A stretch of DNA of 62,630 nucleotides, filler included, from a bacterium (lineage in GTDB: Bacteria > UBP18 > UBA7526): NCBI GenBank assembly GCA_030615855.1. It is 3 parts of 3 records of this genome, joined end to end, with 100 filler letters (N's around TTAATTAATTAA, not from the genome) between each part and the next. Parts side by side here need not be neighbours in the genome. Positions count along the whole stretch, not along the records: positions 24,460 to 55,619 come from JAUWYL010000016.1; 2 more parts are not named here. The stretch is one strand, 5' to 3'. Below, in pieces: positions 32,371-45,694 of this stretch (the stretch's first letter is position 1; the number at the start of each line of letters is the position of its first letter). Below the pieces are notes generated by a model. The model was not told the DNA's origin, searched no databases, and was given only the letters and a program-made list of their open reading frames with translations. The position numbers and the translations under genes were made by a program.

Positions 32371-33288
32371 ATGATAAAGAAGCCTTTAATAGTGATTGTG
32401 GGGCCGACTGCCATTGGAAAGAGTGAAGTAGCCATAGAATTAGCGAAAAGAATAAATGGCGAGATCGTCTCCTGCGATTCGTGTCAAGTTTATAAATATC
32501 TAAATATCGGAACGGCAAAGCCGACAAAAGAAGAGAGAAAAAAGATCCCTCATCATTTAATCGATGTCATAGAACCGGATGAGGAGTTCAACGCTTTCCT
32601 TTATGCCCGAAAAGCACATAAGGCAATTTCAGAGATTCATAAAAAGAAGAAGACCCCCATATTAGTTGGTGGCTCTGGGTTATATGTCAGAGCAACAGTA
32701 GATGGCATTTTTCTTGGTGCCAAAAAGAATAAAGCAATAAGAGAAAGACTAAGAAAATTTAGTAGCGACACTTTGTATAGAAAATTAAAAAAGGTGGATT
32801 CTGAGACTGCTTCTCACCTCCATCCTCACGACAGGGTGCGCATCATCCGCGCTTTGGAGGTCTATGAATTAACCGGTCAGCCCATCTCAGCCCTTCAAGA
32901 AGTGTCTAAAGGAAAGGAGCCTAATTATAATCTAACGATGATTGGCTTGAAAAGAAAAAGGAAAGAATTATATCAGAGAATAAACCAGCGGGTAGAAAGG
33001 ATGATTAAGAAAGGGCTGGTAAAGGAAGTAAAAAATCTTTTAAAGAAAGGATTCTCCAAAGATCTAATTGTTTTAAAAGGCTTGGGCTATAAGGAGATCA
33101 TCGGCTATCTAGATGGGGAATACGATTTAAAAGAGGCCATACGTCTCTTAAAGAGAAATAGTAGAAGATTTGCTAAGAGGCAATTGACCTGGTTCAATAA
33201 GGATAAGAGAATCCACTGGATAGAAATAAAGAAAGGGGATTCAGCAAGTAAAGTCGTTTCCCAAATAGCCAAGCTGCTGAAATGTTAA
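32371..33288 (+). CDS. miaA: tRNA dimethylallyltransferase
   Basis: GPTAIGKS, DS.QVY, IGTAKP, VGGSGLY, RIIRALEV, AKRQLTWF. Confidence 0.96.
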   Translation: MIKKPLIVIVGPTAIGKSEVAIELAKRINGEIVSCDSCQVYKYLNIGTAKPTKEERKKIPHHLIDVIEPDEEFNAFLYARKAHKAISEIHKKKKTPILVGGSGLYVRATVDGIFLGAKKNKAIRERLRKFSSDTLYRKLKKVDSETASHLHPHDRVRIIRALEVYELTGQPISALQEVSKGKEPNYNLTMIGLKRKRKELYQRINQRVERMIKKGLVKEVKNLLKKGFSKDLIVLKGLGYKEIIGYLDGEYDLKEAIRLLKRNSRRFAKRQLTWFNKDKRIHWIEIKKGDSASKVVSQIAKLLKC

Positions 33289-40601: not shown

Positions 40602-40885
40602 TTGGTTAGCCGGTGAGCCGGTGAACCAGTATATAAGTTGACAAGGATACAAGTTGACAAGGAAATACGAAAATACGTAAATAAGAATACAAAATACAGG
40701 TTACGTCAAAGGGTTAGGGTAACGAAGCCCGTATCGGTAACGTCTAAAGGTTACATCTTTAAAGACGAACTACGTAACCCCTAAACGAAACGGGCATCTT
40801 AACCCTGACCGTAACCGAATAACTTTTAACGTATTCACCTATTCACTTATCGACTTGTCAACTAATTCCAAGCGGAGCGAGGGAA
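40602..40885. repeat. mosaic of repeat arms around GCCCGT...ACGGGC copy 2
   Basis: AAGTTGAC/GTCAACT arms, AAATAC units, structured core 40723-40806, CCAAGCGGAGCGAGG before the ATG. Confidence 0.8.
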
Positions 40886-40889
40886 TCTG

Positions 40890-41799: not shown

Positions 41800-42101
41800 A
41801 CGTTGAAGGGTTACGTCGAAAAATTAAATATTAAAAATTAAATATCAAAATTAAGGAGTTTTAATTTGTAATTTTACATTTTGCATTGTCATTTTACATT
41901 TTCATTTTTAATTTTTGATATTACGCTGCATCATTTAATACGAGTAGCGTAACCGCCCCTCGCCGTTGGTTCGGAATACTTCATTTCGGCGAGGTATCCT
42001 GAACAAAGTGAAGGGCAACCGATCGACGATAACCGTCAACATCTGTCATCCGTGTGAATCCGTAATAAATCCGTGCTAATCCGTGCCCGAACGAAGTGAG
42101 G
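41800..42101. repeat. nested repeat mosaic (AT-rich 7-nt hairpin inside GGTTACG/CGTAACC, then ATCCGTG arm)
   Basis: AAAATTA/ATTTT arrays 41819-41922 between ggttacg and cgtaacc; ATC units at 42048/42058/42069/42079. Confidence 0.8.
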
Positions 42102-42106
42102 AAGAG

Positions 42107-42769
42107 ATGAAGACTTGTGTTATCATCCCGGCCTATAATATTGAGAAGACCCTTCCCAGAGTAATTAAGGGTGCCCAGAAGTATGTTGATAAAGTAATCG
42201 TCGTTGATGATGGTTCAGACGACGCTACTTTTAAAAGGGCAAAGGAGGCCGGAGCAGAGGTTTTAAGACATGAGAAGAATCTTGGCAAGGGAAAGGCTTT
42301 ATGTACCGGCTTAGAACGTGTTTTAAAGAAAGGTTTTGAACAGATAATCCTCATGGATGGCGATGGCCAGCACGACCCGAATGAAATACCGAAGTTTCTG
42401 TTTGCCGCCCAGGATCCTAAGGTAGATATGGTTATCGGTTCTCGGATGGAGAATATAAAGGATATGCCCAGAGAACGCTTAGTGGTTAACAGGATCGGTT
42501 CTTTCCTCACCTCTCTTTTAGCAAGACAGAGGATCCCAGACAGCCAGTCTGGATACCGCCTGGTGAAGAACAAGGTATTAAAAGAGATCACCCTCACCTC
42601 CCGGCGCTATGATATAGAGTCTGAGATGCTCATTAAGGCGGGGAAGAGGGGATTCGGAATAAAGAGTATCCCCATAAAGACCATCTATCGCCAGGAAATA
42701 AGCCACTTCCATAAGTTCTGGGATACCTTGAGATTCATAAAACTTATTTTAAAAGGGGTGTGGTGGTAA
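42107..42769 (+). CDS. GT2 glycosyltransferase (DPM-synthase-like)
   Basis: IIPAYN, VVDDGS.D, NLGKG.AL, MDGDGQH, DSQSGYR. Confidence 0.92.
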   Translation: MKTCVIIPAYNIEKTLPRVIKGAQKYVDKVIVVDDGSDDATFKRAKEAGAEVLRHEKNLGKGKALCTGLERVLKKGFEQIILMDGDGQHDPNEIPKFLFAAQDPKVDMVIGSRMENIKDMPRERLVVNRIGSFLTSLLARQRIPDSQSGYRLVKNKVLKEITLTSRRYDIESEMLIKAGKRGFGIKSIPIKTIYRQEISHFHKFWDTLRFIKLILKGVWW

Positions 42770-43292
42770 CAACAGATAGGTAATACAACGGATAACACGG
42801 ATAAAACTGATGGAATTACTGCATAAAGAGTTAACCTATAAAATCCGGAAGTGTCTTTTTGAGGTTTATAATACTCTTGGACCTGGCTTCGATGAGTCAG
42901 TTTATCTCAAGTCATTGACTATAGAATTCAAACATCATGGTATAGCATATGAAACGGAAAAGCCAATCAAAGTCCGTTATAAGGGTACTCTAGTAAAGAA
43001 TTACAAACTTGATCTTGTAGTAGAAAATAAAATCATATTAGAGATTAAAGCGGTAACAAAATTAAATCCTGCGTTCAAATCCCAAATCATATCTTATTTA
43101 AAGGCAGCCCAGTTAGACTTAGGGCTTTTAATAAACTTTGGGAAAGAAAGATTAGAAATTGAAAGAATAATTCTTTCTAATAAAATTAAGTACAACAGAT
43201 AGATAATACATCGGATAACGCAGATAGCGCGGATGAGTAATGACAAAGTATCAGCGTAATCCGCGAAATCTGTTGTAACGAAATCCGTTGTA
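42768..43292. mobile_element. candidate GxxExxY-carrying repeat element
   Basis: Left arm (ACAACAGAT...TACAACGGAT) duplicated on both sides of the gene; complementary right arm ends ATCTGTTGTA...ATCCGTTGTA; gene-free copy at 44916-45029. Confidence 0.6.
42810..43202 (+). CDS. GxxExxY protein (PD-(D/E)XK-like nuclease fold)
   Basis: LGPGFDESVY, YKLDLVVENKIILEIKA, QIISYLKA, GLLINFG; 130 aa. Confidence 0.93.
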   Translation: MELLHKELTYKIRKCLFEVYNTLGPGFDESVYLKSLTIEFKHHGIAYETEKPIKVRYKGTLVKNYKLDLVVENKIILEIKAVTKLNPAFKSQIISYLKAAQLDLGLLINFGKERLEIERIILSNKIKYNR

Positions 43293-43312
43293 TACATAAT
43301 CGAGGTGTACTG

Positions 43313-43723
43313 GTGAGGATACATAAAGAAGTCTTAAACATCGCTACTCAGAAGAGGACACATTTAATTAATGTTACTTCTCAGGTTTGGGACATTGTAG
43401 GAAGATCGAGAATCAAAGATGGGCTCCTATCCCTCTATGTCAGCCATACCACAAGTGGCATCCTGATTAACGAGAATGAGGCAGGACTAAAAGAAGATAT
43501 AGAGAAGTCTTTGGAAAAACTCTTTCCAAAAGGGGGAAAGTATCTTCACAACCGGGTGGATAATAATGCCGATGCCCACCTCAAGTCAACCTTCCTGGGT
43601 AGCACCCTTACCCTTCCCGTTACTGGAGGGAGCCTCCATCTCGGGATGTGGCAGAGTATTTTCTTCGCCGAATTCGACGGCCCCAGAAATCGAAATCTCA
43701 CCGTCATGGTCATCGGCGAATAG
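43313..43723 (+). CDS. YjbQ/UPF0047 family protein
   Basis: HTT..I.INE, YLHN...NADAHLKS, LG.WQSIFF.EFDGPR.R. Confidence 0.92.
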   Translation: MRIHKEVLNIATQKRTHLINVTSQVWDIVGRSRIKDGLLSLYVSHTTSGILINENEAGLKEDIEKSLEKLFPKGGKYLHNRVDNNADAHLKSTFLGSTLTLPVTGGSLHLGMWQSIFFAEFDGPRNRNLTVMVIGE

Positions 43724-43729
43724 TTTAAC

Positions 43730-43890
43730 AAAAAGTTACTAACAGTTACTAAAAAGGTTACTAACGGTTACTAATGGTTACAAAAGCAACCGATAGTAAC
43801 AGGCCCGCTTGTAGCGGGACGTAGTAACCAATAGTAACAGCGAAGTTCTACTACCGGATGGTGTAGGGCGAAGCGTAGTAACCGTGATAA
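43730..43890. repeat. GGTTACTA/TAGTAAC inverted array with inserted mini-hairpins
   Basis: Same family as 38600-38760; centre AAAAGCAAC 43782-43790; hairpin 43802-43820. Confidence 0.85.
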
Positions 43891-43911
43891 TCTTTTCTGA
43901 AAGGTAATTGT

Positions 43912-44931
43912 ATGCCCTCTAAAGTGGGTCTCGTCTATTCAGATGAATATCTAAAACATGATACGGGAGATCATCCAGAGAATAGCAAGCGCCTTGAGGC
44001 TATCCTAAGCTTCCTGAAAGGGAAGAATGTTCTTAAAGATTTAACCTTTATCAATCCCAGAAAAGCAGACTTAAAAGAAATCGAATATCTCCATAGCTCT
44101 TCTTACATCCAGGGAGTAAGAGAACTCTGTAAACGAGGAGGAGGATTTTTAGATCCCGATACCCCGGTATCTAAAGAATCCTTCCAGGTTGCTCTCTTAG
44201 CAGCGGGTGGAGTATTTAGTGCTATCGATAGAATAGTGGATGATCTGGATAGCGCTTTCTGCCTCATTCGTCCTCCGGGCCATCACGCTTTAAAAAAGAA
44301 GGGAATGGGCTTCTGCGTCTTCAATAATATTGCCTTGGGGGCAAGGTATGCCCAGAATAAGCATCGTCTAAAGAAGATTTTAATCCTCGATTGGGACGTC
44401 CATCATGGAAACGGAACCCAAGAGGCTTTCTATCGCGACCCTTCCGTCTTATACTTCTCCCTTCATCGCTATCCCCACTATCCAGGAACAGGAGATATCG
44501 AGGAGATTGGAGAGGGAGAGGGAAGAGGATATACGGTGAATGTCCCTCTTCCTCCAGGATGCGGGGATGGCGACTATATCTACATCTTTAAAGAAATCCT
44601 TCTTCCCATAATGAAAGATTTCAAACCGGGTATCACCCTCATTTCCGCAGGATTTGATGCTCATGCGGATGACCCTTTAGGAGGAATGAGCCTCACTTCT
44701 CAAGGCTACGGAGCACTAACCACTTTAGTAAGAGAATCTTCTAAGGGAATAGTCTCCTGTCTGGAAGGGGGATATAATCTAAAGGCCTTAAGAGAATCCG
44801 TTCTTGCCCACCTGGACTCTTTAGGGGAATTCAATCTCTTTCCCAAAGAGAGAATAGACGAGGAGCCCAATAGAGGAGTTAAGGAAATAGTAAAAAAGGT
44901 AAAGGGAATCCATAGTAAGTACACCAGATAA
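43912..44931 (+). CDS. histone deacetylase family (acetylpolyamine/lysine deacetylase)
   Basis: HPE...RL, RPPGHHA, GFCVFNN, DWDVHHGNGTQ, SAGFDAH..DPL, LEGGY. Confidence 0.93.
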   Translation: MPSKVGLVYSDEYLKHDTGDHPENSKRLEAILSFLKGKNVLKDLTFINPRKADLKEIEYLHSSSYIQGVRELCKRGGGFLDPDTPVSKESFQVALLAAGGVFSAIDRIVDDLDSAFCLIRPPGHHALKKKGMGFCVFNNIALGARYAQNKHRLKKILILDWDVHHGNGTQEAFYRDPSVLYFSLHRYPHYPGTGDIEEIGEGEGRGYTVNVPLPPGCGDGDYIYIFKEILLPIMKDFKPGITLISAGFDAHADDPLGGMSLTSQGYGALTTLVRESSKGIVSCLEGGYNLKALRESVLAHLDSLGEFNLFPKERIDEEPNRGVKEIVKKVKGIHSKYTR

Positions 44932-45029
44932 ATAATACATCAGACAACACGGATAATACAGATATATTGGACTTAAGAAATCCGCGTAATCAGTTGTAAC
45001 GAAATCCGTTGTAACATAATCCGTTGTAA
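44916..45029. repeat. gene-free copy of the GxxExxY-associated inverted repeat
   Basis: 34/40 identity of 44916-44955 to 43187-43226; 21-nt identical GTTGTAACGAAATCCGTTGTA at 44993 and 43272. Confidence 0.85.
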
Positions 45030-45040
45030 TGGAGTTTTGG

Positions 45041-45694
45041 ATGAAGGATGAGATTGAGTTTGCCCAATTGAGAGAAAGGATGGTCGCCACCCAGATTGCC
45101 AGCCGGGGGATTGAGGATAAGAGGGTCTTGGGGGTTATGGCCAAAGTTCCCAGGCACAGATTCGTTCTGCCCGAGTATCTGGATAGCGCCTATGAAGACC
45201 ATCCCCTGCCCATTGGTGAGGGACAGACCATATCCCAGCCCTATATGGTGGCTCTGATGACCGAGTGTCTGGGATTGAAAGGGGATGAGAAAGTTTTGGA
45301 AATAGGAACCGGCTCTGGTTATCAGGCAGCCATCTTGGCAGAGATCTCTAAAGAAGTCTATACCATAGAGAGGGTTGAGAACCTAGCAGAAAGGGCAAAG
45401 AAGGTATTGAGTGATTTAGGATATGAAAATGTAAAGGTAATTATTGGGGACGGCTCACGAGGGTTAGAGAAAGAAGCCCCCTTCGATGGAATTATTGTCA
45501 CCGCTGGCGCCCCCATCTTACCTAAGAGTTTAGTCGATCAGTTGGCTGAGGGAGGGAAGATGGTCATTCCTGTGGGCGGTTCCTTTTCTCAGGCCCTGCT
45601 CTTGGTAGAGAAGGAGAAGGGAAAGGTAAAGACCACCAGTGTCTGTGGTTGTGTCTTCGTCCCTTTGATTGGGGAATATGGATGGAAGAGATAG
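45041..45694 (+). CDS. pcm: protein-L-isoaspartate O-methyltransferase
   Basis: VPRHRFV, AYED.PLPIG.GQTISQP, VLEIGTGSGYQAA, FVPL. Confidence 0.96.
   Translation: MKDEIEFAQLRERMVATQIASRGIEDKRVLGVMAKVPRHRFVLPEYLDSAYEDHPLPIGEGQTISQPYMVALMTECLGLKGDEKVLEIGTGSGYQAAILAEISKEVYTIERVENLAERAKKVLSDLGYENVKVIIGDGSRGLEKEAPFDGIIVTAGAPILPKSLVDQLAEGGKMVIPVGGSFSQALLLVEKEKGKVKTTSVCGCVFVPLIGEYGWKR

Follow-up and report, generated by a model that had tools for sequence, protein, structure and literature searches.

A GxxExxY nuclease gene and its repeat arms as a probable mobile hairpin cassette at bacterial operon junctions

Why does a small nuclease-like gene lie between copies of a tandem-repeat arm at an operon junction, and do gene and arms form one unit? 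This question is raised by a locus in the window studied here, i.e., the whole stretch of DNA analysed (62,630 nt, filler included), which comes from an assembly of a UBP18 (UBA7526) bacterium (GCA_030615855.1). A GxxExxY open reading frame (ORF) occupies its positions 42810-43202. The genome, called G000 in the following, is metagenome-assembled (MAG; 45 contigs, 1.375 Mb, 44.5% G+C, 93.6% complete) and carries the locus on contig C41. The family of the ORF, PF13366/TIGR04256, is large and widespread in bacteria and archaea. The accessible text of a PD-(D/E)XK survey gives its function as 'Unknown' (PMC3424549), and in the accessible text of PMC8934634 GxxExxY appears merely as an annotation label. 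A literature search of accessible article texts found no published account of repeat arms around GxxExxY genes.

A preliminary description of the window had proposed a mobile system at this place. The mobile-element reading is supported, though the earlier interpretation as a whole only in part, and the underlying observation holds and extends wider than first noted. Three of the refuting conditions named beforehand could be computed, and none of them applied. We give a probability of about 0.6 to the reading that ORF and arms are one selfish, horizontally mobile hairpin cassette, which resembles the intervening sequences (IVSs) of rRNA, carries a nuclease as cargo, resides at a cistron junction and is co-oriented with the operon.

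We compared the locus with five relatives from the same family (G001-G005; G001 and G002 share the genus of G000) and with contigs assembled from run X2, i.e., another sample from the same study. For G001, G003, G004 and G005, the upstream GT2 gene is joined straight to yjbQ such that the stop of the former and the GTG start of the latter overlap (junction ..TGGTGGTGAG..). G002 has the gene at the same site; it was also recovered independently as public locus L017 (protein 97% identical). The respective blastn gaps between GT2 and yjbQ are 536-554 nt when filled vs. -11 to 7 nt in the naive relatives. Two contigs of run X2 show the joint 42763->43311, which skips 547 nt with a 4-nt boundary ambiguity, and a 602-nt contig of the same run provides the filled form (5 differences). 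The naive X2 contigs are rich in single-nucleotide polymorphisms and are therefore to be taken as relatives, not as excision products of the same strain. That is, ORF and arms are together a 547-bp insertion. Comparing this junction for filled, empty and naive alleles had been suggested beforehand; naive and filled alleles were found, while an empty (hairpin-only) allele was not seen among relatives and X2 contigs. The features of the locus are as follows (window coordinates).

42083..42769, plus strand: GT2 glycosyltransferase, the upstream host gene (PF00535, E 3.9e-27)
42764..43310, plus strand: inserted segment of 547 nt, comprising arm L1, GxxExxY ORF, hairpin H2 and a short right-end spacer
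42769..42812, plus strand: arm L1, tandem units ACAACAGATAG / ACAACGGATA / ACACGGATA that run up to the ATG (reference copy of repeat family D1)
42810..43202, plus strand: GxxExxY / PDDEXK_3 ORF of 130 amino acids (aa), from profile matches
43192..43235, plus strand: arm L2, i.e., the left arm of H2, providing the NR codons and the stop of the ORF (D1 copy, 82%)
43236..43257, no strand: loop of H2, whose sequence is also found in H0 and H2 of relative G002
43258..43295, plus strand: arm R2, complement of both L2 and L1 (family D2)
43296..43312, plus strand: right-end spacer with GAGGTG ahead of the yjbQ GTG start (read by eye)
43313..43723, plus strand: yjbQ / UPF0047, the downstream host gene (PF01894, E 8.9e-38)
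43724..43918, no strand: separate nested hairpin of the GTTACTAAC family, a dispersed repeat, lineage-specific at this junction
43912..44931, plus strand: deacetylase (Hist_deacetyl; PF00850, E 4.5e-101), final two codons and stop replaced by a hairpin insert
44919..45025, no strand: gene-free hairpin of the H2 family, a decayed 107-nt insertion found only in G000 and G002

The reported direct arms around the ORF (42769-42803 and 43192-43226) were reproduced with 4 mismatches in 35 positions, as were the 34/40 match of the left arm to a further copy (43187-43226 vs. 44916-44955) and the exact 21-nt match of the right arm. The repeat search groups the left arms into direct family D1 with three 44-nt copies at 42769, 43192 and 44921 (the latter two with 82% and 80% identity to the first) and the right arms into family D2 (43258-43292; 44979-45013 at 94%; 44994-45028 at 74%). 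The exact 21-mer common to the right arms (43272 / 44993) occurs only twice in the 1.375-Mb genome when both strands are considered. Rather than plain inverted repeats, the arms are arrays of units of about 10-11 nt with a CNGAT core (ACAACAGATAG, ACAACGGATA, ACACGGATA, GCGCGGATG), and the right arm is assembled from complements of left-arm units. Hairpin 43186-43300 folds better than shuffled sequences (z -4.81 and -4.85 for the two strands; 0/200 shuffles as good), and the RNA duplex energies of L2:R2 and L1:R2 are nearly equal (-33.0 and -32.2 kcal/mol). No Rfam family matched the region 42000-45600 at E up to 1.

The gene-free hairpin of the deacetylase/PCMT junction is a separate 107-bp insertion. 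Here, the joint 44918->45026 skips 107 nt with a 3-nt ambiguity, and only G000 and G002 have the insert. This copy (44916-45029) had been described as a bare hairpin; it is an inserted homologue of H2, but a decayed one that folds no better than shuffles (plus strand: z -0.38, 62/200; minus strand: z -1.16, 24/200). It had also been stated that the arm supplies the last codons of both proteins. The tails KYNR* (43188-43202) and KYTR* (44917-44931) are indeed present, but the naive deacetylase ends in ...SKYWNFG*, overlapping the PCMT start, so KY is native in the deacetylase and only TR* comes from the insert.

H2 and the copy at the deacetylase tail both start directly after AAGTA, and the ORF has a C-terminal extension (SNKIKYNR) of 8 residues beyond its five paralogues that ends within L2 in the paralogue alignment. 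The most plausible account of the duplicated left arm is that another hairpin of this family (H2) was joined to the 3' end of the ORF at such an AAGTA site. L1 would then be the ORF's own left arm, with R2 able to pair for both L1 and L2. The right-end spacer (43296-43312) looks like the GT2 end in naive alleles, possibly as a target duplication. Relative G002 has an additional complete hairpin H0 between GT2 and L1, with a loop identical to that of H2, which G000 does not have; the G000 sequence fits the product expected from recombination between the direct copies L0 and L1. The earlier idea of recombination between direct copies is thus consistent with H0 of G002, but its hairpin-only L1/L2 product was not seen at GT2/yjbQ.

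All six PF13366 genes of G000 show an upstream array and a complementary downstream array when inspected by eye, with unit types CACGAA, CACTGAA, ACACGGATAG, GCACGGATTA (twice) and that of the window. Since the genome is full of hairpins (252 with a score of at least 36 in 782 intergenic regions), simple screens for flank complementarity are uninformative. Raw Smith-Waterman and RNAduplex screens of the flanks of all genes were dropped, as many ordinary genes lie between two complete hairpins. The six GxxExxY genes reached only ranks 19, 33, 105, 223, 260 and 266 of 1253 in the RNAduplex screen, which was therefore replaced by a split-repeat criterion, i.e., at least two 5-mers that are repeated upstream, whose complements are repeated downstream, and that are absent from the respective opposite flank. 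An ungapped pairing of Tandem Repeats Finder arrays yielded only 6 pairs and was dropped as too strict. The split-repeat criterion picks 15/1253 genes, 8 of which belong to GxxExxY (3) or PF05635 (5), two families that together contribute 13 of the 1253 genes screened. A chance arrangement is rejected by this enrichment together with the shuffle test across loci.

For loci outside the lineage, we used the best-scoring 80 of 539 GxxExxY loci, which is a non-random selection; 72 of them are usable (ORF of 100-160 aa, enough flank). The 80 loci are spread over Verrucomicrobiota, Planctomycetota, Bacteroidota, Acidobacteriota, Nitrospinota, Cloacimonadota, Thermodesulfobacteriota, Chloroflexota, Spirochaetota, Elusimicrobiota and others. 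For each locus, the upstream flank was compared with the reverse-complemented downstream flank and scored against shuffles as well as against the downstream flank of another locus. The arm score exceeds 99% of the shuffles for 49/72 loci and 95% of the other-locus pairings for 43/72, and 38/72 have at least two forward cores upstream and at least two reverse cores downstream. Together with the 6/6 genes of G000, this confirms that GxxExxY genes are enriched for arms. Within arm-bearing loci the core is mostly CAC[AG]GA, with CACGGA, CACGAA and CAGGA as variant units. The typical layout reads TAGCCACAGAG-nn-CACAGAG-nn-CACAGAG ... ATG ... stop ... CTCTGTG-nn-CTCTGTG-nn-CTCTGTGGCTA, and the stop codon is often within the first unit of the right arm. 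Two loci (L052 and L055, Planctomycetota/Verrucomicrobiota) have the left arm repeated directly, not complemented, downstream of the ORF, a layout that suggests tandem cassettes as in the window.

Gene and arms are also found to move together. A 455-nt segment of arms plus ORF has 91% identity between contigs C45 (ilvH/ilvC junction) and C30, both of G000. We mapped the arm types onto a maximum likelihood tree of 73 protein sequences, where they are clustered (36 changes vs. a mean of 46.7 for shuffled assignments; 0/200 shuffles as low). One clade of this tree, marked by a star, contains four cassettes with CAGGA arms from hosts labelled as three phyla, and CACGAA arms are common to one G000 paralogue and the Elusimicrobia cassette with which it pairs. 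Relatedness alone yields such clustering; what the tree shows is thus co-inheritance and co-transfer, not co-evolution. Copying of cassettes within the genome is shown, as is their transfer, arms included, from one phylum to another.

Hairpins that share the unit type but have no ORF also arose by insertion, and the same genomes contain them in abundance. At dapA/dapB, G000 has a gene within ACACGGATA arms, where G001 and G002 have related arrays of 77-97 nt without a gene; the leftmost units are common to G000 and G001 and the interior differs. At ilvH/ilvC, the gene is present in G000 and in public locus L050, where G002 has a gene-free hairpin of 168 nt, built on CGCAGAT arms and enclosing a smaller one at its centre. 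Hairpins are commonly nested in the centres of other hairpins, and one PF05635 cassette lies inside a CNGAT hairpin (C30:13711).

Up to three families are nested in some 'Russian-doll' hairpins, as found at 40602-40889 in the window and at C30:68850-69099 and C30:247503-247697 in G000. The former is a triple-nested insertion of 288 nt between a stop codon and the next Shine-Dalgarno site, which is not present in G001, G002 and G003. In region C30:87100-87570, complete CNGAT hairpins are located directly upstream of groES and between groES and groEL, each stopping a few bases ahead of the Shine-Dalgarno site.

Next to the locus, the GTTACTAAC-unit hairpin at 43724-43918 encloses a GC-rich mini-hairpin and belongs to a dispersed repeat of about 115 nt with copies of 75-90% identity, at least 7 of them in G000 and further ones in G001, G002, G004 and G005, and some copies are without the inner 68-69 nt (joints 43752/3->43822). 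G001 has a 14-nt spacer instead of the hairpin at this junction (joint 43723->43919 with 14 other letters in between).

To relate arrays and genes across genomes, we counted CRCRGA-N3-5-CRCRGA tandem matches in excess of a reversed control pattern. The set comprises 116 genomes (G000 and G006-G120); the close kin G001-G005 were left out to limit non-independence. The median array excess is 38 in the 29 PF13366-positive genomes vs. 1 in the 87 negative ones (Mann-Whitney p 2e-10; Spearman 0.59), and 15/29 vs. 7/87 are array-rich (Fisher odds ratio 12, p 1.8e-6). The expectation that array-rich genomes carry GxxExxY thus holds as a tendency, but 7 array-rich genomes, e.g., G022, are without PF13366. 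The matches number 230 vs. 5 for the control in G000, 442 vs. 29 in G075 (2 genes) and 230 vs. 8 in G101 (12 genes); that is, the arrays far exceed what the genes' own arms can contribute, for instance in G075. G022 itself has 64 matches vs. 3 for the control, no PF13366 match and 19 matches to PF05635, of which many are short and face each other in pairs.

What does the ORF encode? It matches PF13366 (E 6.8e-40, 136.5 bits with cut-off 22, profile positions 1-117) and TIGR04256 GxxExxY (E 4.2e-42, 143.2 bits with cut-off 35, positions 1-116), and shows the motif G26-F-D-E29-S-V-Y32. All 73 sequences compared have E29, Y32, E78 and K80, and at least 90% of them have D68; E29, D68, E78 and K80 are the catalytic residues. 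An AlphaFold2 model of the ORF (predicted local distance difference test 93.2, predicted template modelling score 0.85) has Cas4 SSO0001 as its top Foldseek match (E 1.4e-4), and the VIA comparison lists the BpuSI nuclease domain (Z 7.7, root-mean-square deviation 2.6, 93 aligned) and Cas4 (Z 7.4). According to this predicted structure, the protein is a minimal restriction-endonuclease/Cas4-like core, a statement that concerns the general fold. A sequence search of the PDB with a 6-sequence profile gave nothing below E 0.5, and the homodimer prediction (score 0.00, mark 0.42) weighs neither way. As to a recognisable transposase, the four families searched in G000, i.e., PF01797 (Y1), PF00665 (rve), PF01548 (IS110) and PF01609 (DDE_Tnp_1), each gave 0 matches.

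Some observations bear on the transcript. The upstream neighbour is co-directional in 60/65 loci and both neighbours are in 45/61. The upstream stop and the ATG enclose the left arm and the right arm begins at the ORF stop, so a read-through transcript holds both arms and thereby a long stem. For the 48 strong-arm loci, the sense-strand duplex is more stable in 32 vs. 15 cases (Wilcoxon p 0.004). An RNase III gene is encoded in G000. The stem of 25-45 bp would, somewhat more probably than otherwise, be cut by RNase III in the read-through transcript as it is in rRNA IVSs, and such cleavage would allow a low-cost residence within the operon.

The same layout is used by a second family. G000 has 8 full genes of PF05635 (23S_rRNA_IVP, a four-helix bundle), at least 6 of which lie between complementary tandem-repeat arms at operon junctions, with a different unit at each locus. 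The genes located in hairpin loops are the following (contig and coordinates).

C2:23475-23843, PF05635 gene
C44:16707-17096, PF05635 gene
C26:20951-21322, PF05635 gene
C6:9206-9589, PF05635 gene
C45:9526-9903, PF05635 gene
C30:13711-14136, PF05635 gene

Among the PF05635 loci from elsewhere (L151-L180), 23/30 score above 99% of the shuffles, with highly diverse units of period 6-8 nt. PF05635 is called uncharacterised in the accessible text of PMC11270868. For the 23S rRNA of Coxiella, the text available to us describes the IVS as a selfish element of 428 nt and possibly a former mobile element. Its terminal inverted repeats pair to a 28-bp stem, the S23p ORF occupies the loop, GACAGAT heptamers are arrayed in tandem ahead of the ORF, and RNase III cleaves within the stem (PMC4990558). 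The same text mentions an older idea that the IVS ORF encoded a mobility function. Given this layout, the architecture in the window is that of an ORF-bearing IVS, the cargo and the type of host site being different.

Judged by analogy of layout, the closest known system is thus the ORF-bearing 23S rRNA IVS, and not the repetitive extragenic palindromic (REP) elements with their REP-associated tyrosine transposases (RAYTs), which had been named as nearest analogue; the latter comparison is the weaker one. Common to the cassette and to the IVSs of Leptospira, Coxiella and others are an element size of about 430-550 nt, an ORF of about 120-130 aa in the loop, terminal inverted repeats forming a stem of about 25-45 bp, and short tandem direct repeats in the 5' arm. 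That complementary termini enclose a small ORF was confirmed here (L1 or L2 pairs with R2), as it was for the 49/72 loci elsewhere. In contrast to IVSs, the cargo is PD-(D/E)XK (PF13366) instead of S23p / PF05635, the site is located between the protein genes GT2 and yjbQ instead of helix 25 or 45 of 23S rRNA, and the units of about 10 nt have a CAC[AG]GA core that is conserved across phyla, with numerous inserted ORF-less copies. Excision by RNase III is a feature of the IVS; for the cassette it would be expected by analogy.

With REP/REPIN-RAYT systems, the cassette shares a small enzyme gene flanked by inverted repeat copies, many gene-free intergenic hairpin copies, and a genome-wide co-occurrence of gene and repeats. 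RAYTs are, however, Y1 HUH transposases, whereas the enzyme here is PD-(D/E)XK and PF01797 has 0 matches in G000; a REP is a single imperfect palindrome, whereas the arms are tandem unit arrays. RAYTs are single-copy genes that are vertically inherited. GxxExxY occurs with several diverged paralogues per genome that have different arm types, the cassettes move horizontally, and their layout is also used by the non-enzymatic family PF05635. Miniature inverted-repeat transposable elements with an autonomous parent likewise have terminal inverted repeats, insertion polymorphism between close relatives and short ORF-less derivatives, but the cassette is without a known transposase, and the insertions compared show no consistent target duplication. 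Finally, I-Ssp6803I is a PD-(D/E)XK homing endonuclease. As for such enzymes, a small PD-(D/E)XK nuclease is the sole protein encoded by the cassette, but the latter lies outside introns and inteins, and the proposed target is a palindrome built from repeats rather than a conserved gene.

How would the cassette spread? The nuclease might act on the arm DNA as a palindrome- or hairpin-directed endonuclease that copies the ORF or the whole cassette into new or ORF-less sites, for which we see somewhat less than even odds; ORF-less hairpins would then be derivatives or targets of the nuclease. More tentatively, and on balance rather doubtfully, GxxExxY could be the catalytic engine of an undescribed class of mobile elements that do without transposase and occur across most bacterial phyla. 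The restriction-like nuclease would then recognise palindromic arrays of decamers with CAC[AG]GA core, cut at or near the dyad, and in this way spread a copy of gene and arms to further cistron junctions and to the middle of hairpins that have no ORF. Operons would tolerate the element thanks to the removal of the transcribed stem by RNase III. PF05635 cassettes, including the classical rRNA IVSs, would form a sister class based on the same hairpin biology, and the nested 'Russian-doll' hairpins of the 1.4-Mb genome would be the fossil record of this activity.

We weighed these proposals against three alternatives. The one that treats the arms as ordinary intercistronic RNA hairpins, which process, stabilise or attenuate transcripts and to which the GxxExxY gene is unrelated, is largely refuted and has hardly any probability left. 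In favour of a mere passenger, G000 is riddled with hairpins (the 252 counted above), a pair of them encloses many an ordinary gene, and hairpins are placed just upstream of Shine-Dalgarno sites. Yet the split-arm layout is concentrated on two families (8/15 from 13/1253 genes), it reappears, with its core conserved, in distant phyla that have no general wealth of hairpins in their genomes, and the arms arrive together with the gene. In a homing scheme, the nuclease would cut ORF-less palindromes of its own unit type at their centre; the ORF would be placed at the dyad when the cut is repaired from a filled copy, and the arms would belong to the target. The ORF is always at the dyad, hairpins (and the PF05635 cassette at C30:13711) are nested in hairpin centres, the outer left units at dapA/dapB are common to G000 and G001 around a different interior, and a palindromic layout would suit a dimeric restriction-like enzyme. 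What makes this scheme quite unlikely is that the empty GT2/yjbQ allele is entirely without hairpin, that G000 has well over 100 arrays but a gene in only 6 of them, and that arm type and protein clade move together from phylum to phylum, though gene conversion tracts could carry arms along.

The remaining alternative follows the REP/RAYT analogy, i.e., GxxExxY would be a domesticated or selfish single-strand hairpin nuclease that spreads ORF-less hairpins in trans, with the arm-flanked genes being 'autonomous'. This is better placed than homing but still improbable. The gene is flanked by inverted repeat copies, arrays vastly outnumber genes in positive genomes such as G075 and G101, arrays and PF13366 co-occur across genomes, and a Y1 transposase match is missing from G000. 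PF05635 cassettes, however, share the layout and have ORF-less relatives in G000 without a nuclease. The six paralogues are diverged and their differing arm types follow horizontally moving protein clades, unlike the case of RAYTs. Moreover, 7/87 genomes are array-rich without PF13366, and the whole cassette rather than the hairpin alone appears at the naive GT2/yjbQ site.

Several observations weigh against the reading as a mobile cassette itself. At GT2/yjbQ, alleles of relatives and X2 contigs are only naive or filled, with no hairpin-only allele or L1-L2 recombinant. No excision product, enzyme activity or RNA end was seen in the data, which are DNA contigs, and no RNA run was found to contain the stretch. 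No consistent target duplication is found among 7 G000-specific and 6 relative-specific insertions; two of the insertions have boundary ambiguities of 4 nt and 3 nt, respectively, and other junctions resemble replacements. The 80 loci tested are the best-scoring of 539 and no random sample, and even so 23/72 usable loci are without significant arms; Chryseobacterium loci show none by eye. Across genomes, 7/87 PF13366-negative ones are array-rich and 14/29 positive ones are not. The sense-strand excess of G.U pairs is weak in raw counts (74 vs. 53, p 0.076), and a transcription-linked C-to-T mutation bias could be behind it. The fold matches are generic (all Z < 8). As the MAG is 93.6% complete, absent transposase matches are no proof of absence. 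Since the non-nuclease PF05635 genes occupy the same layout, the architecture alone does not point to the ORF product as transposase, and, by parallel with PF05635 as cargo, the product need not drive mobility.

The mobile-cassette reading ties PF13366 and PF05635 to one architecture with insertion polymorphism and thereby gives each family a testable role, with the cognate arms as a concrete DNA or RNA substrate for biochemistry. With the link to the cassettes, the old puzzle of where rRNA intervening sequences come from has a candidate answer, and the nested repeat hairpins that fill intergenic regions of some small genomes are explained. If the nuclease were array-directed, it would be a compact enzyme that reads sequence and structure together.

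Two further repeat-bounded structures were observed. In G000, small GIY-YIG-like ORFs of 88-113 aa lie between short inverted repeats of AAAGGTGCGGGG type (C35:39184-39525 and C30:56569-56835) and may represent a third small-nuclease family in a repeat-bounded cassette. In G005, the locus L112/L117, which faces window positions 32918-32921, has a tandem array of 339 nt with four units of about 83 nt in a gene region, where G000 has 2 nt.

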